From IMG/VR virus record IMGVR_UViG_2713896785_000009: 7,335 nucleotides of DNA. One strand, given 5' to 3'. A model generated the notes under the pieces. It searched no databases. It had not been told where the DNA came from and saw nothing but the letters and a program-made list of their open reading frames with translations. Position numbers and translations under genes: made by a program. Positions 1-7,335 of this stretch are shown in pieces. Each line of letters begins with the position of its first letter. Positions within the stretch are counted from its first letter, which is position 1. This DNA is from a virus. Taxonomy: Duplodnaviria; Heunggongvirae; Uroviricota; Caudoviricetes.

Positions 1-30
1 AGCATCGAACAGGTTATCGAAATCAGCCAC
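1..30 (-). CDS. FII: Head-tail joining / head completion protein FII, 5' fragment (first 10 codons; gene continues beyond window start)
   Basis: Minus-strand reading from 30 downward gives GTG GCT GAT TTC GAT AAC CTG TTC GAT GCT = (M)ADFDNLFDA, matching my recollection of the lambda gpFII N-terminus. GGGAGG Shine-Dalgarno at 35..40 (minus strand), 4 nt upstream of the GTG. Sits immediately downstream of the FI stop, as in lambda. Too short for the ORF track to list. Confidence 0.7.
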   Translation of the reverse strand, partial: MADFDNLFDA

Positions 31-41
31 AGCGCCTCCCG

Positions 42-437
42 TTATTGCATTCTGGCCAGGCCGCGCTCTGTCATTTCAGCTGCCACACCGGCAGAGACAC
101 GGAACGCCGTTCCCGGCAGCACAAATACCACAGCCTCATCCCGCGTGGCGTGAAGTGCATCAGTATGCAGCGTCACCAGTGCCACAACCGTGACCAGATC
201 AGCCGTATCAGTCACGGTATCCGGCTGCGCTGATACAACCTCATTTTCATGTCCGGTCAGCACATTTTCCGGGCTGAGAGGGGTATCCTGACCGGCAGTG
301 TCGCCCGTGTCATCAAGCTCTTCTTCCAGCTCTGCCACACGGAGCGCCAGTTCTTCTTTCGTCCCCGTCAGGCTGACATCACGGTTCAGTTGCTCACCCA
401 GCGACCGGAGACGGGCAATCAGTTCATCTTTCGTCAT
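42..437 (-). CDS. FI: DNA-packaging / head assembly protein FI
   Basis: Track ORF 42..476 (-). From the internal Met onward (MTKDELIARLRSLGEQLNRDVSLTGTKEELALRVAEL...AEMTERGLARMQ) the protein is colinear with, and very similar to, lambda gpFI (132 aa) as I recall it. I place the start at the ATG at 435..437 rather than 476 because GGAGGAG (441..447, minus strand) lies 5 nt upstream and the 13 extra N-terminal codons have no lambda counterpart. Stop TAA at 42..44. Confidence 0.9.
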   Translation of the reverse strand: MTKDELIARLRSLGEQLNRDVSLTGTKEELALRVAELEEELDDTGDTAGQDTPLSPENVLTGHENEVVSAQPDTVTDTADLVTVVALVTLHTDALHATRDEAVVFVLPGTAFRVSAGVAAEMTERGLARMQ

Positions 438-478
438 GGACTCCTCCACAGAGAGAAAATGGCCCCTAAGGGCCATGA

Positions 479-1507
479 TTACGCCAGTTGAACGGACACG
501 AACTCATCAGGATCAGCCAGCACCATCAGCGGTGCGGACTGCGTCATGGTAAATTCACGGGCCGGATCGCCCACGGTCAGCCAGTGTTTCGGGTAACGGG
601 AAGAAGCCACCACACCTTCGGACAACGCCTGCGCATCCTGAATGGCACCGTAACAACGGATCCCATCTGCAGCCGTATTTCCCAGGACCAGCGTGCCCTC
701 CGGCAGATAACGTTTTTCGGTACCGTCCTCTGCCACATAAGACGTTTTCGCCACCACAATGGCCAGATCGCCGTAATACCCTTTGAAAGACACCACCGCC
801 CCCAGGTCTTTCACTGCCGTTTCGAGTTGTGAATTTGAGCCGCGACGGGTATCCAGTTTTTCGCGGAACAGCTTAAAACCATTCAGCAGACGCCAGACAG
901 TACCGTCCATAATGGCAATATTCACAAGACCGCTGGCCTGATCGCAGTAGAGGTCAATATCATGCGTCGGATCAAACGTATCACGGTCCTGCTCAGACCA
1001 TTTTTTACCGTCGGCCTGCTCAATGTTATTTCCTTCAGAGCGTCCAAAATCCACCTCGACAGTATCAAACTGATCCCCTTCCATGGTGTATTTGCCATAC
1101 AGCACGGCATTCACCGCCTGCATTTCTTCCACCTGGACAATGGCATGCTCTTCCTGTTTGAGGTTATCGGTGATGATACGCAGACGACGGTAGGCCGGGT
1201 CGTTCAGTTGAGCCGGATCTTCACCGGGAAGACGCTCAACCGCCTGCTGGTAATTAAATTCGTGTTTCGGCTTGACGTAGCCCGGACGTAACACGCGGGT
1301 TTCACCACCGCGATGACGCAGCACTTTTCCTTCAACAACCGGGGAGACATAGGCCGCCACCGGCGTTTTTCCGGTAATTTTGTCCAGCATCACCTCTTCG
1401 GTATGGAAATTCACCGTACGGCGGAAAAACAGCTCCAGAAACAGCGCACGAAATTTCACTTTTTGTTCGGTATAACCGAGTAACTGGCGGGTCGTAAACA
1501 ATCCCAT
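479..1507 (-). CDS. E: Major capsid protein (lambda gpE family, HK97-like fold)
   Basis: 342 aa ORF (lambda gpE is 341 aa). Colinear similarity throughout, e.g. GYVKPKHE, DPAYRR, IAQVEEMQAV-like AIVQVEEMQAV, KEKLDTRRGSNS-LETAVKDLG, and C-terminus GDPAREFTMTQSAPLMVLADPDEFVSVQLA nearly identical to lambda. AAGGA Shine-Dalgarno at 1516..1520 (minus strand), 8 nt upstream of the ATG. Confidence 0.95.
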   Translation of the reverse strand: MGLFTTRQLLGYTEQKVKFRALFLELFFRRTVNFHTEEVMLDKITGKTPVAAYVSPVVEGKVLRHRGGETRVLRPGYVKPKHEFNYQQAVERLPGEDPAQLNDPAYRRLRIITDNLKQEEHAIVQVEEMQAVNAVLYGKYTMEGDQFDTVEVDFGRSEGNNIEQADGKKWSEQDRDTFDPTHDIDLYCDQASGLVNIAIMDGTVWRLLNGFKLFREKLDTRRGSNSQLETAVKDLGAVVSFKGYYGDLAIVVAKTSYVAEDGTEKRYLPEGTLVLGNTAADGIRCYGAIQDAQALSEGVVASSRYPKHWLTVGDPAREFTMTQSAPLMVLADPDEFVSVQLA

Positions 1508-1535
1508 AAATCAGTTCCTTTCATTCAGAAATCAG

Positions 1536-1557
1536 TCAGGCCACCGCGGTGGCCTGA
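1536..1557. repeat. Perfect 22-bp palindrome TCAGGCCACCGCGGTGGCCTGA in the D-E intergenic spacer (potential RNA hairpin or protein-binding site)
   Basis: Read directly: 1536..1557 equals its own reverse complement. GC-rich arms with a central CCGCGG. Lies between the D stop (1565..1567) and the E start (1505..1507). On the minus-strand mRNA it is followed by CUGAUUUCUGA, which is not a clean U-tract. Confidence 0.6.
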
Positions 1558-1564
1558 TAACGTG

Positions 1565-1912
1565 TTACGGCAGCGCCGCGTGACTCAGGGCACTGCCGGC
1601 AAAGGCATTTGCCTTTTTGTGTTCATCCACACTGTCAGGCCAGCGGATTGCCTCCGTCGCAAAGGTCCCCGACTTGTAATACGTCAGTACCGTCTCTGTG
1701 CCTTCAAGCGGCAGTACCAGTATGCCAACCGCACTACCGGCTTTCTGTCCGTCCCAGACCACCAGTTTCCCGGTAGCTTCATCCAGCATCAGGGGCGTCA
1801 GTGCCGGTGTTGCCGAGGAAATCCCGCTGCTGCCTGTGGCGGTATGAGCCGGATCATTACCGGCAAAAATACGTACTTCCGCACGCTGTTCAGTGATGGT
1901 TTTCGTTACCAT
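1565..1912 (-). CDS. D: Head decoration protein (lambda gpD family)
   Basis: 115 aa ORF (lambda gpD is 110 aa). Conserved blocks DPAHTAT, TPLMLD, KLVVWDG, AVGIL, YYKSGTF-like (lambda FYKSGTF), AFAG. AGGAGG Shine-Dalgarno at 1923..1928 (minus strand), 10 nt upstream of ATG at 1910..1912. Confidence 0.9.
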   Translation of the reverse strand: MVTKTITEQRAEVRIFAGNDPAHTATGSSGISSATPALTPLMLDEATGKLVVWDGQKAGSAVGILVLPLEGTETVLTYYKSGTFATEAIRWPDSVDEHKKANAFAGSALSHAALP

Positions 1913-1948
1913 ATTGTAAAAACCTCCTGTTGATGGTCAGCACTGACT

Positions 1949-2764
1949 TCATGGCATGGCCATGAGCATTTTCACGTCCGCATCACCGTCTGCTGACGTC
2001 TGTGGCACGCCACCCTGTACCGCTGCCGGTGAATGGTTCGCCATGATGCGTTCAAACAGGGCGGTTGTGGATGCAGAGACCGGTTCTGCCTTACCTGATC
2101 CCGCAGCCAGCACAGCCCGGGCGCTCTCCACAGTCATTCCCGGGCAGGCAGCCAGCTGTTCAGCCTGCGCCTCAGCCCCTTTTGCCTCATCCAGTGCCAT
2201 GATCTGATCACGGAGTGAGGGTCCGGCATCCGCCTGCGGTGAAGCAGCCAGGATCGGGCGGGCTTTTTCCACCGTCATCTCCGGCATCGCCGCCAGCGTT
2301 GCCGCCAGTTGTTCACGACCGTTCGCTTCTTCACACGCCATAATGCGATCGGCTTCACTCTGCGTGGATGCCACCGGCTGCTGCGGTGCCGCCGCGGCCA
2401 GAATCGCCCGGGCCTGTTCAACGCTCATGCCCTGTTGTCCTGCCAGCATCGTGGCAAGCTGTTCACGTCCTTTCGCTTCCTGGCATGTCAGGATCCCCAT
2501 CACTCGCTGGTTCTCCTGCGCGGCGGCTTCCGTTGCAGTTAATTGCGGCATAGTGCCTCCTCTGACATTACTGTTCAGCGCCGTGGCCATCACACTGATG
2601 GCATCCGACGCATTGACTAATTCATCCGCCAGCCCGGCATCAATGCCGGACTGACCTTCAAAAACGGCGGCCTCTGTTCCCGTGACGGCATCAACAGACA
2701 GACCGGTAAACATGGCCACTTTTTCGGCAAACATCCGGCGCGCCGCATCAATGCGCTGCTGCAT
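1949..2764 (-). CDS. Nu3: Possible nested in-frame scaffolding protein (Nu3-like), translated from an internal start within gene C
   Basis: Inference by analogy: in lambda the Nu3 scaffold is made from an internal in-frame start in C and shares its stop. Here in-frame Met codons occur at residue 231 (ATG 2762..2764) and residue 241 (2732..2734), within a few residues of where the lambda Nu3 start aligns (our Ile235). The ribosome-binding context before 2764 is weak (AGAGG about 11 nt upstream), so the exact start is uncertain. Confidence 0.3.
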   Translation of the reverse strand: MQQRIDAARRMFAEKVAMFTGLSVDAVTGTEAAVFEGQSGIDAGLADELVNASDAISVMATALNSNVRGGTMPQLTATEAAAQENQRVMGILTCQEAKGREQLATMLAGQQGMSVEQARAILAAAAPQQPVASTQSEADRIMACEEANGREQLAATLAAMPEMTVEKARPILAASPQADAGPSLRDQIMALDEAKGAEAQAEQLAACPGMTVESARAVLAAGSGKAEPVSASTTALFERIMANHSPAAVQGGVPQTSADGDADVKMLMAMP

Positions 2765-3454
2765 GTCCTGGCGAACCTCTGCCGGTAAGGCTTCAAACTG
2801 ATTGCCATCCACCTTGTGCGCCCCTGAGTAAATCAGCGTGATATCCACACCGGCCTGCGCCAGATGACCGGCATAGCTGACATGGCTCATCATCACGCCA
2901 ATGGAGCCGATACGGGATGTCTGGGTAACCAGCCGTCGGGAGCAGGCCGACGCCAGCAGCATGGCTGCAGAACAGGCCGTGTCATTGCACAGTGCCCAGA
3001 CCGGCTTCTGCTGACGGAGGCGGTAAATCATGTCAGCGCAGTCAAACGCGCCGGCGGCCTGCCCGCCCGGACTGTCAATGTCCAGCAGTACGCCCCGCAC
3101 CTGGCTATCCGCCATTGCCTGCTGAAGACAGGCGACAATGCCGTCATAGCCTGTCATTCCGGAAAATGGCCGCATACCCCCCAGCCGGTGCACCAGCGTG
3201 CCGGTCACCGGCAGTACAGCAATACCGTTCACCACCCGGTAAACACGGGCCGGTCGTTTACCTCCGGCCATGTACTCGTCCGTTTCAGCCAGCATTCCGG
3301 GAGCATCAAGCTGTACCTGCTGCTGTGGTACCGAAAGACTTGCTGCCCCCATCTCGCGCCCGAGCGCGCAAAAGAAAACCCGCGCATAGGCGGGCTCCAG
3401 AAGCAGCGGTTCATTGAATGCCGCGGCAATAATGTGTGAAAGATTACGTCTCAC
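1949..3454 (-). CDS. C: Prohead protease (lambda gpC family; ClpP/SppA-like serine peptidase domain fused to C-terminal scaffold-like region)
   Basis: 501 aa ORF versus about 439 aa for lambda gpC. N-terminal two-thirds strongly colinear with lambda gpC (AFNEPLLLEPAYARVFFCAL, NGIAVLPVTGTLV, SGMTGYDGI, GGQAAGAFDCAD, KPVWAL-ND, SRRLVTQT-R-GSIGVMM, GVDITLIYSG-HKVDGN, TGLSV, TEAAV, AIDAGLADELVN). The C-terminal third carries the repeat expansion listed separately. Start overlaps the B stop by 11 nt. Confidence 0.93.
   Translation of the reverse strand: MRRNLSHIIAAAFNEPLLLEPAYARVFFCALGREMGAASLSVPQQQVQLDAPGMLAETDEYMAGGKRPARVYRVVNGIAVLPVTGTLVHRLGGMRPFSGMTGYDGIVACLQQAMADSQVRGVLLDIDSPGGQAAGAFDCADMIYRLRQQKPVWALCNDTACSAAMLLASACSRRLVTQTSRIGSIGVMMSHVSYAGHLAQAGVDITLIYSGAHKVDGNQFEALPAEVRQDMQQRIDAARRMFAEKVAMFTGLSVDAVTGTEAAVFEGQSGIDAGLADELVNASDAISVMATALNSNVRGGTMPQLTATEAAAQENQRVMGILTCQEAKGREQLATMLAGQQGMSVEQARAILAAAAPQQPVASTQSEADRIMACEEANGREQLAATLAAMPEMTVEKARPILAASPQADAGPSLRDQIMALDEAKGAEAQAEQLAACPGMTVESARAVLAAGSGKAEPVSASTTALFERIMANHSPAAVQGGVPQTSADGDADVKMLMAMP
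2096..2512 (-). repeat. In-frame tandem triplication (~150-bp unit, about 47-53 aa) within the scaffold-like C-terminal region of gene C
   Basis: Protein repeats: RVMGILTCQEAKGREQLATMLAGQQGMSVEQARAILAAAAPQ (res ~317-358), RIMACEEANGREQLAATLAAMPEMTVEKARPILAASPQ (~370-407), QIMALDEAKGAEAQAEQLAACPGMTVESARAVLAAGS (~417-453), with a possible degenerate fourth start (ERIMANHS, ~468-475). At DNA level the motif gccag(c/t)tgttca(c)g recurs at 2151, 2304 and 2454 and gttcacg at 2311 and 2461, an exact 150-nt spacing for the latter. My recollection of lambda gpC/Nu3 has a single copy (RIMGILNCEEAHGREEQARVLAETPGMTVKTARRILAAAPQ). Confidence 0.8.
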
Positions 3455-5036
3455 GGGGTGTTGTCTCCTCTTCCGGCCTGCGACTCTCCGCTATCTGCTG
3501 CTGATACGCCTGCGCTATCCACACCGGACGTGAGAGTCCGGCTTTTTGCCGCTCTGCAGATTCCCTGACCTGCTGGCGGAAAATGTCCTGATAATCCTCG
3601 CCCATCAGCGCCAGCTCTTTCTCATACGTGCTCAGTCCGGCCTCAATGCGCATCACCGATTCCTGAACCTCCTTGAGCCCGTCAATGGCCATTCTTCCGG
3701 CACCAATCCACTCTGCCCGTGACCAGGCTGATCGCGCCTGATAAAAATCAAAACGCGCCCGTGGCGGACGGATAATCCCCCGAAGAAGTGCCTCTTCCAG
3801 CCAGCAGGAAAACATCTGCGTGGCCAGCCGGGCCGCAATAAATTTTCGCCGCCCCATAAAATAGCGCCACGACTCATTGGCAGAGGCCCTGGCACTTGAA
3901 TAACTGACCTTCGAGTAATCACGGGACAACTGTTCGTAGGAAACGCCAAGACCGGCGGCGATATACCGCAGCAGCGCCTGTTCAAGCGCCGAAAATCCAT
4001 TGTCTGAATCCTGCGCAGTCTGTAGTTTCAGATCATCACCAGGGAAAAGGTGCGGAATTTTGACTCCGCCCAGCGTCACGCTATTCGTGTCATACCAGCT
4101 GGAGAACTTCTCCAGAATATTAATAAGCGGATTATCCTTCTGCTCCTGTGGCGCGCCGGCGATATATTCAAAGGCCTTTTCGGTATCAAGTTCACTTTCA
4201 ATCGTCGCTGCATACATGGCTTTCACAATGGCCGACTGAAGCTGTGTTGCCTGCAGGGAATCCAGCATCTTCAGCCGTTCCATGACGCTGTAAAACTGAT
4301 TAGCCCCACGGGTCTGCCCGTCCTCCACCGGCTCGAAAATATGCAGCATGGCCGGACGCCCGGTGGGAAGTTCACGCGGGATCCGTTCCCATCGTCCACT
4401 CCCGGAGAACGGAAAATCATCCTCACAGATATGGTACGCAACGGCACGGCCATATCGATCGACCTCCACCCCGGCCCGCAGAAAACGGTTCCCCATACCG
4501 TGTCCTGGCGTGTCCACCCGTTTCGGACTCACGGCTTTAAAACGCGTACGGAATAACTGCGTGGTTTCCGTATCCCAGACCGGCTGCACAAAGATTTCGC
4601 CGTTAAACGCATGAACGCCCACACCTTCACGGATAAATTCCGTGAACGTGCGTTTTCCTTCCACGTCGATCTCGCCAGACATCCCTTCGGCGTATTCCGA
4701 CCAGGCCGCCTCCACCTCATCGACAAAGCTTTTTGCTGCGGTCTCCCGCATCCCCAGCCAGCGCCAGTTCGGACGGTAGCTGATAAGAAACATATGCCCG
4801 ACAATGTGATCCTTATGCAGTGCCACCGCATTGGCCGCTATTCCGTTATTGCGCACCAGATCATCTGCCCGGGCATTCCCCAGACGCAACGCGGGCAGCA
4901 GGGCCGCATCGGCACTCTGCGCCGGTGGCAACCACTCCGCCATTTGCCCGCCAAATCCTGCGCCGCCCCCGTTGTAGCTGAGACTCTCACGAAGCGGAAC
5001 GCCGTTCACATCAATCAGGACAGGCGTTCGTTTCAT
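3444..5036 (-). CDS. B: Portal protein (lambda gpB family)
   Basis: 530 aa ORF (lambda gpB is 533 aa). Extensive colinear similarity, e.g. GNARADDLVRNNG, FEPVEDGQTRGAN-FYSVME, LQSAIVKAMYAATIESELDT, LLRYIAAGLGVSYEQLSR, SYS-ARASANESW-YFMGRRKF, WIG-GRMAIDGLKEVQE-VM-IEAGLSTYEKE. Start ATG 5034..5036 overlaps the W stop in an ATGA arrangement (5033..5036). Confidence 0.95.
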   Translation of the reverse strand: MKRTPVLIDVNGVPLRESLSYNGGGAGFGGQMAEWLPPAQSADAALLPALRLGNARADDLVRNNGIAANAVALHKDHIVGHMFLISYRPNWRWLGMRETAAKSFVDEVEAAWSEYAEGMSGEIDVEGKRTFTEFIREGVGVHAFNGEIFVQPVWDTETTQLFRTRFKAVSPKRVDTPGHGMGNRFLRAGVEVDRYGRAVAYHICEDDFPFSGSGRWERIPRELPTGRPAMLHIFEPVEDGQTRGANQFYSVMERLKMLDSLQATQLQSAIVKAMYAATIESELDTEKAFEYIAGAPQEQKDNPLINILEKFSSWYDTNSVTLGGVKIPHLFPGDDLKLQTAQDSDNGFSALEQALLRYIAAGLGVSYEQLSRDYSKVSYSSARASANESWRYFMGRRKFIAARLATQMFSCWLEEALLRGIIRPPRARFDFYQARSAWSRAEWIGAGRMAIDGLKEVQESVMRIEAGLSTYEKELALMGEDYQDIFRQQVRESAERQKAGLSRPVWIAQAYQQQIAESRRPEEETTPRET

Positions 5037-5239
5037 AACCTCACTCCCAGCGGACGACGGCGACGCCGGGTTGTCCCCAGTACCGACTCCGCATCATTGA
5101 TCGCCCGGTTAAGCTCATCCAGAGAAGCCGCCGTATATTCAATTCTGCGACCATCTTTCTGGACAGACACCACCCGTTTACCGGTTAATAAATCAAGGCG
5201 CGCCTGACGCAGCGCCTGCAGTTCAGCGACTGTAACCAT
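5033..5239 (-). CDS. W: Head-tail joining / head completion protein (lambda gpW family)
   Basis: 68 aa ORF, the same length as lambda gpW. Conserved L-TGKRV--VQKDGRR-E-TA-S core and basic RRRR tail. GGAGG Shine-Dalgarno at 5245..5249 (minus strand), 5 nt upstream of ATG at 5237..5239. Overlaps the 3' end of A by 17 nt. Confidence 0.9.
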   Translation of the reverse strand: MVTVAELQALRQARLDLLTGKRVVSVQKDGRRIEYTAASLDELNRAINDAESVLGTTRRRRRPLGVRL

Positions 5240-7151
5240 TCACTCCTCCGGACAGCTTCGCTGCCAGTTCTTTCAGGGTTGGCCGGGTCGTCTCTTCTTC
5301 CCGGGATTTTGCCAGTACAGCCAGATCAAGCTGCCAGCGTTGCACGGACACACGTAATGCCGCGTAGGCATACACCAGGCAGTCCAGCGCTTCGTTACGC
5401 CGCTTTTTGTTATCCCACAGCAGACGCATCTTTCCTTTTTCCCACTTCTCCACAAGCTCTTCCGCCACCAGTTGCTGCGCCTCTGTCTGCGAAAAAATCT
5501 CCGGATCATCAGGAAAACGGATGGCATACGACGTGGCTTCATCCGCAGGCGTGGGATCGGCTTTCATACGGGCATAGAGAATTTCTTTTGCGGTGTCCGT
5601 CCCCACTTCACACAGATACACGCCCCGCTGATTGCGGGTTTTCGGCATGGTGATCACCGGCTTGCCATAGACAGACGCGCCTTTTACCGGCAGCACCCGG
5701 AAAACACTGTGTTTTTTTGATCTCTGATAAACAATTTCACCATCGATCCCCCCGGTGTCCCAGCAGACACGGGAAATGGTCATTTCGGTGCCATCCGCAT
5801 GGCGATATTTTTTGTTGATCGCAGCATCCACACGTAACAGCGTCTCTTCCTCATCGGGACGCCCCATAATGATGATTTTATCCACCAGAAAGGCTTCCTC
5901 TCCCGGTGCCCATCCCCAGACATACATCTCAAAACGGTTTCGCTGCGAGTCAATGCCCGCCGTCAGATAAACCACCCGGGAAGGCACCGCAGCCGTGTAA
6001 CGCACAACCTTATCCATCAGTACCTGGTGATCGAGTTTTTCGCCCACGGCCTCTTCCCAGGTCTCGCCCAGCGTGGTGTTCACAAAGGTTTTCAGGCCGT
6101 TGGGATCTTTCAGTGCATCCAGCCAGTCATAGACAATCTGTACCCAGGTGGTGAACGGACTGTACGCCGTCCAGATATGGAACGTGATGGAGCGCGGCGG
6201 CGGAATTTCATCACCCCGGGCGCTGAAAAACGTCAGACCGTCACGGGTCCACATGCCCGTGTTTTCACAGATCCACCGCCCGTTGCTCTGGTCCAGTTCA
6301 GACTGATGGATCACGCAGCCATGATGTTCACAGAGGTAGAAAACACTTTCAGGGCTGTCCTTCTCCCATTTAAGCCCAAAAGGCGTGGACTCATCGCCAA
6401 ATTTCAGATACTGCGCCTCCCCACAGTGCGGGCAGGGCACATAAAAACGCATAAAATGCGCCGACTCGTTAGCGGCTTTTTCGATCTGGCAGGTGCCTTT
6501 GATTTTAGGCGTCGAGCCGCGAATGGATTTTGGCCACACCGACCCCTCAATACGCTTATCCCCCAGCAGGGTTGGCGAGCCCTCTTTTTCGACATCCGGC
6601 TCGAACGAGGAAAGTTCGTCATAGCAGACCACGTCCACGGATTTTTCACGGTAGTTTTTGGCGGCAGCGCCGCCCAGGCACCAGAAACCGACGCCCGATG
6701 AAAAGCGTTTCAGCGTGAGAGTATTGTCACGATGTTTACGACCCAGCCATGGGGAAAGGTCTTTCAGGCATGGCACGTTCCGAATCGTCGCCTCCACGTG
6801 AGACTTCATAAAATCTTCAGCGGCAGAATCCGTGGGCTGAAAAAGCAGACTGTTTCGGGATTTATGCTCAATAAAATACCCGACCACCCCCAGCAACATC
6901 TTTGTATAGCCAACACGGGCAGATTTAATCAGGTTAACCGTGCGAACCTGGTCGTTACCCATACAGTTCATAATGGCGATCTGGAATGGCAGCGTTTTCC
7001 ATTCGCCCTCACCGTATGAGGATTCTTTAGGCAGATAATAATTTTGATCAGCCCATTCAACTGCCGTCATTGGTACAACCCTGACCAGAGGCTGCAGCGC
7101 AACCGAAACGGCAGCCATCATATTATTCAGTTGTTGCTCTGATATATTCAT
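5223..7151 (-). CDS. A: Terminase large subunit (lambda gpA family: packaging ATPase plus cos-cleaving endonuclease)
   Basis: Track ORF 5223..7208 (-). I place the start at the internal ATG at 7149..7151 (MNISEQQLNN...) because lambda gpA begins MNISNSQ... and the 19 upstream codons lie inside the Nu1 reading frame; this gives 642 aa versus 641 for lambda. Colinear similarity across the whole length (TAVEWAD-NYYLPKES, VGY-KMLLGV, HVE-TIR, DNTLT-KRF, FWCLGG-AAKNYREKSVDV, SPT-LGDKRIEGSVWPKSIRGSTPK, HFMRF-V-CPHCGE-QYLKFGD, FHIWTAYSPFTTWVQIV, TTLGETWE, TAGIDSQ, WDTGGID, KGASVYGKPV, RRNEALDC). Confidence 0.95.
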   Translation of the reverse strand: MNISEQQLNNMMAAVSVALQPLVRVVPMTAVEWADQNYYLPKESSYGEGEWKTLPFQIAIMNCMGNDQVRTVNLIKSARVGYTKMLLGVVGYFIEHKSRNSLLFQPTDSAAEDFMKSHVEATIRNVPCLKDLSPWLGRKHRDNTLTLKRFSSGVGFWCLGGAAAKNYREKSVDVVCYDELSSFEPDVEKEGSPTLLGDKRIEGSVWPKSIRGSTPKIKGTCQIEKAANESAHFMRFYVPCPHCGEAQYLKFGDESTPFGLKWEKDSPESVFYLCEHHGCVIHQSELDQSNGRWICENTGMWTRDGLTFFSARGDEIPPPRSITFHIWTAYSPFTTWVQIVYDWLDALKDPNGLKTFVNTTLGETWEEAVGEKLDHQVLMDKVVRYTAAVPSRVVYLTAGIDSQRNRFEMYVWGWAPGEEAFLVDKIIIMGRPDEEETLLRVDAAINKKYRHADGTEMTISRVCWDTGGIDGEIVYQRSKKHSVFRVLPVKGASVYGKPVITMPKTRNQRGVYLCEVGTDTAKEILYARMKADPTPADEATSYAIRFPDDPEIFSQTEAQQLVAEELVEKWEKGKMRLLWDNKKRRNEALDCLVYAYAALRVSVQRWQLDLAVLAKSREEETTRPTLKELAAKLSGGVNGYSR

Positions 7152-7335
7152 CGAGTAAATCCGGTAATTTATCCCCTGCCCGCGCACACTGATTTGCCCC
7201 CTTAGCAATAAGGGTTTTCAGATGGTCAAGATGGCGCGGTGTTAAATCAGGAAACTGTCGCTGCATGGATAAAGGGATGGAATCAAGCGTACTGGATAAC
7301 GCCATTGCCAGCTTACTGAGGGCAAAAATACAGAA
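7123..7335 (-). CDS. Nu1: Terminase small subunit (lambda gpNu1 family), C-terminal fragment; 5' end lies beyond the window
   Basis: Minus-strand frame is open from 7335 to the TAA at 7123..7125 (the track lists only the part from the Met at 7305). Translation ...FCIFALSKLAMALSSTLDSIPLSMQRQFPDLTPRHLDHLKTLIAKGANQCARAGDKLPDLLDEYIRATTE aligns with the lambda gpNu1 C-terminus as I recall it (...TAFCTFVLSRIAGEIASILDGLPLSVQRRFPELENRHVDFLKRDIIKAMNKAAALDELIPGLLSEYIEQSG). Its 3' end overlaps the A start by 29 nt, as Nu1 and A overlap in lambda. Confidence 0.8.
   Translation of the reverse strand, partial: FCIFALSKLAMALSSTLDSIPLSMQRQFPDLTPRHLDHLKTLIAKGANQCARAGDKLPDLLDEYIRATTE

Follow-up and report, generated by a model that had tools for sequence, protein, structure and literature searches.

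A phage 21-type lambdoid head operon with an ancient, fixed in-frame triplication of a scaffold module that is single in lambda gpC/Nu3

We analyzed a 7,335-nucleotide (nt) stretch of viral DNA (Caudoviricetes; IMG/VR record IMGVR_UViG_2713896785_000009), hereafter the window, in which the gene for the prohead protease/scaffold fusion, homologous to lambda gene C and phage 21 gene 5, carries three tandem units in its C-terminal part. Almost certainly, the window is a phage 21-type lambdoid head operon in which a module occurring singly in lambda gpC/Nu3 has been triplicated in frame, a change that is ancient and fixed. Its C-like gene is 98.7% identical in nt sequence to phage 21 gene 5, and bases 497-7077 are ~95% identical to that phage. 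The triplication is already known as the Tri1, Tri, and Tri3 boxes of phage 21; we say so because of the GenBank feature table of M81255.1, a phage 21 head-gene deposit from before 2022, where “Tri1 box,” “Tri box,” and “Tri3 box” are entered as repeat_region features inside gene 6, each with the note “function unknown; putative.” In the literature searched, outside which lay the primary phage 21 head-gene and gpNu3 biophysics papers, we found no textual description of the triplication. The new content here is modest and consists of a survey of copy number (1 to 4, with apparently independent duplications) and an analysis of selection on each unit.

The units were delimited with a profile hidden Markov model (HMM) built from the three window units together with those of lambda, phi80, and Gifsy-1. 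The family motif, I-L/M-x-x-x-E-A-K-G-R-E-x-L-A-x-x-L-A-x-x-P-G-M-T-V-E-x-A-x-x-x-L-x-A-A-P, is found three times in the 501-amino-acid (aa) product (68-77 bits). The copies span 2096-2506, in agreement with a previous sequence-only reading of the window, which had placed an in-frame triplication in the C-terminal part of gene C at 2096-2512. The conserved core is ~40 aa per unit, and the linkers are 8-11 aa. By the same model, gpC of lambda, phi80, and N15 has one unit each, and phage 21 and Gifsy-1 have three; the single lambda copy, as the sequence-only reading had it, is borne out by this count and by BLASTP against lambda gpC. Two PHROGs families, phrog_8940 (the lambda Nu3 family) and phrog_8399, each match three stretches of the protein, and PHROGs alone recognize the unit, there being no model for it in Pfam or NCBIfam. 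The third repeated segment of the 501-aa product, as read in the protein, is QIMALDEAKGAEAQAEQLAACPGMTVESARAVLAAG. Unit alignments identify unit 3 as the most diverged, with the near-invariant R and L of KGRExL replaced (KGAEAQ). This unit reads KGAEAQAE in all E. coli 21-type sequences, and KGRExLA is found in the Salmonella relatives and in every other unit.

Self-comparison of the last 200 aa confirmed the repeat at offsets of 50, 47, and 97 aa, with scores of 100, 93, and 82 (BLOSUM62 over 35 aa), far above those of 300 shuffles (30.1 ± 5.3, maximum 51; z ~10-13). At the DNA level, identity over 105 nt is 66, 63, and 59% at offsets of 150, 141, and 291 nt, compared with 47 ± 1.8% (maximum 53%) in codon shuffles (z ~7-10). 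The ~50-aa unit and 150-nt period previously proposed therefore fit the step from unit 1 to unit 2, but the step from unit 2 to unit 3 is 141 nt, and the unit is better described as the shorter core plus a linker. Pairs of units are 57-65% identical in nt sequence, with 65-81% identity at codon positions 1 and 2 and 35-41% at position 3, which is saturated. The longest exact run is 8 nt in register between units and 9 nt for a direct repeat anywhere in the scaffold gene. Tandem Repeats Finder (TRF) detected no array at the locus of the window because the copies are less than 70% identical, and an exact-seed repeat search returned only fragments of 12-22 nt.

The Tri boxes of M81255.1 map directly onto these units: Tri1 box (5542-5645) to window 2381-2484 (unit 1), Tri box (5682-5792) to 2234-2344 (unit 2), and Tri3 box (5823-5936) to 2090-2203 (unit 3). 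The mapped boxes coincide with the HMM-defined units, and the three tandem units of the window thus occupy the Tri positions, as in the phage 21 subtype. The complete phage 21 genome deposited in 2022 (OL657228.1; CPT_21_05/06) annotates a capsid protease/scaffolding protein and a scaffolding protein with the same internal ribosome-binding site (RBS) and start.

That internal, in-frame start is also found in the window, as GGAGG-N5-ATG at 2560-2549, at the position of the phage 21 gene 6 start, and the ATG at 2551 is the predicted start of scaffold translation. All three units fall inside this nested scaffold gene, which is the C-terminal part common to protease and scaffold, as had been proposed when the repeat was assigned to a Nu3-like scaffold region. 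Because the units lie in the region common to both products, the protease (501 aa) and the scaffold (200 aa) each carry three. The coordinates of these and the other features are collected in Table 1.

Table 1. Features of the window (positions in the 7,335-nt stretch; all on the minus strand).
Feature	Position	Strand	Basis
Unit 1, aa 317-358, RVMGILTCQEAKGREQLATMLAGQQGMSVEQARAILAAAAP	2381-2506	minus	Unit HMM, 70 bits
Linker 1, QQPVASTQSE, variable	2351-2380	minus	pLDDT <50 at residues 58-63; indel-rich alignment
Unit 2, aa 369-407, RIMACEEANGREQLAATLAAMPEMTVEKARPILAASP	2234-2350	minus	Unit HMM, 77 bits
Linker 2, QADAGPSL	2210-2233	minus	Lower pLDDT at residues 105-112 (200-aa protein); alignment
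Unit 3, aa 416-453, DQIMALDEAKGAEAQAEQLAACPGMTVESARAVLAAG	2096-2209	minus	Unit HMM, 68 bits
Post-repeat helix, TTALFERIMANHS, similar to helix 1 of an additional unit	2036-2074	minus	AlphaFold2 helix 160-172; fourth xRIMA match, aa 468-472
C-terminal tail, poorly conserved, predicted disordered, ending in conserved LLM-x-x-P	1952-2035	minus	pLDDT 44-52
57-bp block deleted in the 482-aa variant	2246-2302	minus	Pairwise DNA alignment with NZ_CP053247.1
In-frame nested gene for the scaffold, 200 aa; homologous to lambda Nu3 and phage 21 gene 6	1949-2551	minus	ATG 2551 in sequence; annotated in M81255.1 and OL657228.1
Shine-Dalgarno GGAGG of the nested scaffold gene, AGAGGAGGCACTATG	2556-2560	minus	Sequence; RBS in both phage 21 records
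Fusion of prohead protease and scaffold, 501 aa; homologous to lambda C and phage 21 gene 5	1949-3454	minus	Open reading frame (ORF) list, Pfam
Terminase large subunit	5223-7208	minus	ORF list/Pfam
W-like gene	5033-5239	minus	ORF list/Pfam
Portal	3444-5036	minus	Pfam Phage_portal_2
Decoration protein	1565-1912	minus	Pfam HDPD
Major capsid protein	479-1507	minus	Pfam Phage_cap_E
FI	42-476	minus	Pfam Packaging_FI; SAP-like N-terminal match, weak

A side observation concerns lambda itself. Lambda gene C contains a strong GGAGG-N5-ATG at codon 309 (MTKETQ...; NC_001416, ~5322-5347), exactly homologous to the scaffold starts of phage 21 gene 6 and N15 gene 6. The lambda nu3 start given in RefSeq, at codon 239 (MDATRQ...), is without a visible Shine-Dalgarno sequence. 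The real lambda Nu3 start may be the downstream codon 309, which would give a protein of ~131 aa.

The relationships among units bear on the age of the triplication. In the unit tree, the first units of all multi-unit proteins fall in one U1 clade, and window units 2 and 3 pair with units 2 and 3 of Gifsy-1. Given this one-to-one pairing, the triplication is older than the divergence between the E. coli and Salmonella phages compared here. Against Gifsy-1, the units have a ratio of nonsynonymous to synonymous substitution rates (dN/dS) of 0.12, and the S49 protease domain one of 0.14; taken singly, unit 2 has 0.09 and unit 3 has 0.24, the highest of the three. The proportion of nonsynonymous differences (pN) against Gifsy-1 is 0.20 in the units and 0.46 in linkers plus tail (linker 1, 0.45; tail, 0.50). 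Judged from these substitution patterns, every copy is individually maintained by purifying selection.

The three-unit form is also common. Of 5426 complete E. coli genomes, 1870 carry the three-unit segment, with up to five copies per genome, and 3224 carry the lambda-type single-unit segment. Of 40 rows sampled down the ranking, 38 are full length, 37 of them exactly 652 bp and one 650 bp, and length is constant in 57 of the 59 full-length rows of a second sample drawn from the ranking of the ~1870 complete-genome hits. The exact 501-aa protein occurs on at least 994 contigs, and the three-unit sequence occurs in 19 phage records, most of which are sequenced phage isolates. For phage 21, the Illumina and Sanger assemblies are identical (PMC9119081). 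These sequences indicate that copy number is not unstable within the 21 lineage. The three-unit and lambda-type forms are the ordinary states of two common types of E. coli head module. The proposal that the triplication is an unrecognized departure from the lambda blueprint is therefore not sustained, since M81255.1 already has the Tri boxes and three units are ordinary in 21-type heads, Gifsy-1 included.

Copy number does vary at the margins of this lineage. A natural variant of 482 aa (WP_001253887.1; UniProt B7N3L2) has lost 57 bp in frame from the second half of unit 2, with a junction at a 5-nt microhomology, CTGGC, inside one unit rather than by exchange between units. It occurs on at least 1000 contigs, yet in only ~2 of the 59 full-length rows sampled from the complete-genome hits. 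Other changes are seen in rare partial E. coli proteins: in P0020 (three sequences), unit 1 is fused exactly in register to unit 2 (..GMSVEQAR|PILAASPQ..), and P0021 and P0016 have lost unit 2 completely or nearly so. Among the variants examined, none touching unit 1 or unit 3 was seen, and unit 2 is the variable part. A separate E. coli lineage has four units (GCA_032727965.1, contig 1-1043), of which units 2-4, with 83-88% identity in protein sequence, make up a 138-bp array that TRF detects (77% matches). This lineage is present in 106 of the 5426 complete genomes, with constant length in the full-coverage rows sampled. On its contig, baseplate genes (GPW_gp25, Baseplate_J) come after head genes of the lambda type, an order that suggests a tail of the myovirus type rather than a lambda tail.

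To place these forms in the wider family, the unit profile was run against 1.84 billion representatives, which yielded 1085 proteins at E ≤0.001, and units were counted in the best 150 of them. Among the 57 full-length proteins in that best 150 of 1085, a single unit is found in 55, two units in P0141, and three in P0092, the 21/Gifsy representative; two short scaffold-only proteins, P0104 and P0105, also have two units. P0141 is a protease-scaffold of 469 aa with a PPTPPTPP linker. In the unit tree, both units cluster by protein in P0141 and in P0104, which suggests that these two are independent duplications of the same module, but those of P0105 do not group together. By these counts, one unit is the family norm and multi-unit forms are a recurrent minority, and copy number is evolvable, with 1, 2, 3, and 4 units in different lineages. 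Three units are the ordinary state in 21-type heads, but lambda, phi80, N15, and most of the wider family have one.

Structure prediction portrays the unit as a small helical module. With the 200-aa scaffold and 20 homologues as input, AlphaFold2 gave a mean predicted local distance difference test score (pLDDT) of 67 and a predicted template modeling score (pTM) of 0.27, with three separate modules, each a short helix-loop-helix-loop-helix (pLDDT 73-81), and low-confidence linkers between them. In unit 1, the predicted helices lie at residues 6-21, 30-37, and 44-53 of the 200-aa protein (pLDDT 77-81). A single isolated unit (unit 2), modeled with 21 unit sequences, also has three helices (pLDDT 84). 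The conserved positions of the unit are mostly small or hydrophobic (I4, A10, A17, L20, A21, M26, A31, and L35), and K11, G12, R13, and E14 are invariant or near-invariant polar residues in an exposed loop or turn of the model. No solved homologue or significant fold match for the unit was found. The matches returned from PDB profiles were only de novo designed tandem-repeat proteins with a “GVSLEQA..IL” resemblance, and we set these aside as chance matches of low information.

In lambda, Nu3-E, Nu3-C, Nu3-Nu3, and Nu3-B interactions have been reported without domain mapping, and Nu3 and gpC are located inside the prohead and removed by proteolysis, with Nu3 degraded by gpC (PMC3224144; Table 2 therein). 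The most likely function for the units is as docking modules that would tether the scaffold and protease to the shell or portal, a proposal that we regard as evenly poised between right and wrong; for the explanation as a whole, namely the phage 21-type identity together with multivalent docking, the balance tips slightly in its favor. Each unit would fold alone as a small three-helix module with an exposed, near-invariant E-A-K-G-R-E loop, and flexible linkers would join the modules. Each would bind a protein and so fix the scaffold and the protease to the inner face of the assembling shell, the likeliest partner being the major capsid protein, with the portal as another possibility. Three units would make the 21-type scaffold trivalent, compared with a monovalent lambda scaffold, and could add avidity or bridge neighboring subunits. 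The gp6-like scaffold (200 aa) would be far more abundant than the gp5-like protease (501 aa), and the S49 protease would then degrade the whole region at maturation, by analogy with lambda.

Several observations weigh against docking. GenBank itself labels the boxes “function unknown”; lambda, with a single unit, builds the same T=7 shell, which makes extra units dispensable in principle; and half of unit 2 is gone in a widespread natural variant, while the conserved Arg (and Leu) is lost from unit 3 of the 21 lineage. The half-unit variant and the Arg loss imply that three fully competent sites are perhaps not needed, or that the prophages concerned are defective, and they warn against assuming that every site works equally well.

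Alternatively, the units might be self-association modules, extra copies of which would alter the oligomeric state or network of the scaffold rather than its binding to the shell. Nu3-Nu3 interaction has been detected in lambda by yeast two-hybrid and dimers have been reported (PMC3224144), and the unit is the sole well-folded conserved element of a short scaffold protein. However, the reported interactions come without domain mapping, and in the AlphaFold2 monomer the units are not packed on each other, an argument that is weak at a pTM of 0.27. We consider this explanation unlikely on its own terms. Self-association and shell binding are compatible and not mutually exclusive.

It is likewise improbable, in our estimation, that the units are bulk, spacers, or protease-substrate cassettes, filling prohead volume or offering the EAKGRE loop as a cleavage site, with copy number nearly neutral. 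In lambda, a low-complexity linker of ~55 aa precedes the one unit and takes the place of the extra ones, so that tether length may matter more than valency; the common variant without half of unit 2 and the missing motif residues in unit 3 of the 21 lineage would also fit a spacer. By contrast, purifying selection on each unit is as strong as on the protease domain while the linkers drift, the full three-helix core and not the loop alone is conserved across very distant relatives, and duplication has apparently recurred independently.

Whichever role the units play, we find it very improbable that they are a recent tandem duplication of 150 bp of DNA that recombines readily and varies in number among close prophages. 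Variants do exist in close relatives (the P0020 fusion, P0021 and P0016 without unit 2, and the 57-bp deletion), and the 138-bp array of the four-unit lineage is of the kind that TRF detects. RecA-dependent exchange needs ~25 bp or more, and the exact runs in the window, at most 9 nt, fall far below this. The copies have diverged to saturation at third positions and escape TRF, all three are orthologous in Salmonella Gifsy-1, length is constant throughout nearly all sampled rows (38/40 and 57/59), and the common deletion arose within one unit, with no inter-unit crossover. The instability that the sequence-only reading expected from recombination in a 150-bp direct repeat is contradicted by the same low identity, short runs, and near-constant length; its expectation of copy-number variation is partly upheld by the rare deletion variants and the four-unit lineage. 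Homologous exchange between units played no part in the common deletion. The chance of an assembly artefact that spuriously expanded a single unit is practically negligible, this previously raised possibility being excluded by the same sequence in 1870 complete genomes and 19 phage records, by the agreement of phage 21 assemblies made independently from Sanger and Illumina data (PMC9119081), and by copies too diverged for assembler confusion; nothing in its favor was found.

In itself, the discovery value of the triplication is small, as it was annotated beforehand and is normal in one of the two commonest E. coli lambdoid head modules. The unit is, however, the sole well-conserved folded element of the lambda-family scaffold, and its natural one-, two-, three-, and four-unit versions could help to show where and how the scaffold and protease of lambda-type phages are held in the prohead. 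More speculatively, and with rather low confidence, unit copy number might be a selectable “valency dial” for lambda-family scaffolds. The module has apparently been duplicated independently in several lineages, and each copy in the three-unit 21/Gifsy lineage is under purifying selection. Different copy numbers may tune how avidly scaffold and protease bind the shell, with effects on assembly fidelity, on how much protease is packaged, or on resistance to parasites that target capsids, such as phage-inducible chromosomal islands (PICIs).

The rest of the window conforms to a lambda-type head operon, with all genes on the minus strand in the order terminase, W-like, portal, C, decoration, major capsid, and FI, according to the ORF list and Pfam. 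The protease/scaffold fusion has an N-terminal S49 (SppA-like) domain at aa 146-293 (Peptidase_S49, PF01343; E 7.2e-35, 120.7 bits against a cut-off of 24.9). The 501-aa protein also matches the NCBIfam SppA domain (E 4e-31, under the equivalog cut-off, as expected for a phage paralogue) and phrog_53, head maturation protease (E 3e-78). Its gene has a GTG start, and its first 11 nt are also the last 11 nt of the portal gene (3444-3454). The start of lambda C overlaps the end of B in the same way, and the arrangement suggests translational coupling. Scans for promoters and terminators found nothing within the repeat, and an Rfam scan of the window found nothing. Plus-strand ORFs of 61-103 aa across 2309-2654 were rejected as read-through on the strand opposite GC-rich coding sequence. 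The two “CII binding sites” that OL657228.1 places near the repeat are bare pattern matches and were not used as evidence.

Both ends of the window depart from phage 21. Similarity to phage 21 and its relatives ends near base 497, where the major capsid gene finishes, and the FI gene type differs from phage 21 ORF1; the E/FI boundary (window 1-496) is, by this break in similarity, a mosaic joint. The match to phage 21 and ev017 also stops at ~7077, and PhiR12-type phages match to 7335, which makes ~7077 a second mosaic boundary on the same kind of evidence. It lies close to the 5′ end of the gene for the large terminase subunit and to the gene for the small one. A GC-rich stem-loop of 9 bp (TCAGGCCACCGCGGTGGCCTGA; 1536-1557, minus strand), followed by a T-containing tract, separates the decoration gene from that for the major capsid protein. 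N15 has an annotated “putative rho-independent terminator” in the same place, between its genes 7 and 8.

Known systems resemble the window gene to different degrees. Protease-scaffolds of the P2 gpO type likewise join an N-terminal serine protease to a C-terminal scaffold/capsid-targeting part, but their protease family and C-terminal sequence differ, and they are not known to have a repeated unit. The C-terminal helix-turn-helix of the P22 scaffolding protein is a coat-binding domain, and it is a functional analogue only: both are small helical end modules on a flexible scaffold with conserved charged residues and a proposed tether to the coat. The P22 domain is classically a single two-helix domain, whereas the window has three helices per unit, in three copies, shared with a protease; likeness in sequence or fold to the solved P22 domain was looked for and not found.

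Lambda is closer, with the gene order portal, C/Nu3, D, E, 54% aa identity of gpC to the window protein by BLASTP, extending through the S49 domain, and the same unit motif (RIMGILNCEEAHGREEQARVLAETPGMTVKTARRILAAAP), after which come a DRLM helix and a tail. It differs in having one unit, in the ~55-aa low-complexity linker before that unit (~15 aa in the 21 type), and in the length of gpC (439 aa compared with 501 aa). After the lambda unit, “ALDRLMQ” is the equivalent of the window post-repeat helix, and its “DRLM” aligns by BLASTP with the start of window unit 2; each type finishes with one more element resembling a first helix (window, ERIMA; lambda, DRLM). Gifsy-1 STM2605 of Salmonella, a 498-aa homologue of lambda gpC, has three units in the same order, with 75, 80, and 59% aa identity to window units 1, 2, and 3. 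It is ~71% identical overall in nt sequence, and its unit 3 retains the canonical KGRE lost from the 21-type unit 3. The nearest system is phage 21, from which the window differs only by point changes in this gene (98.7% nt identity in the C gene, 97.5% aa identity in the 200-aa scaffold) and in its FI-side end (1-496), which is not 21-like. Phage 21 gp5, a head-tail preconnector containing the scaffold gp6, has the same 501- and 200-aa lengths, nested start, RBS, and three boxes.

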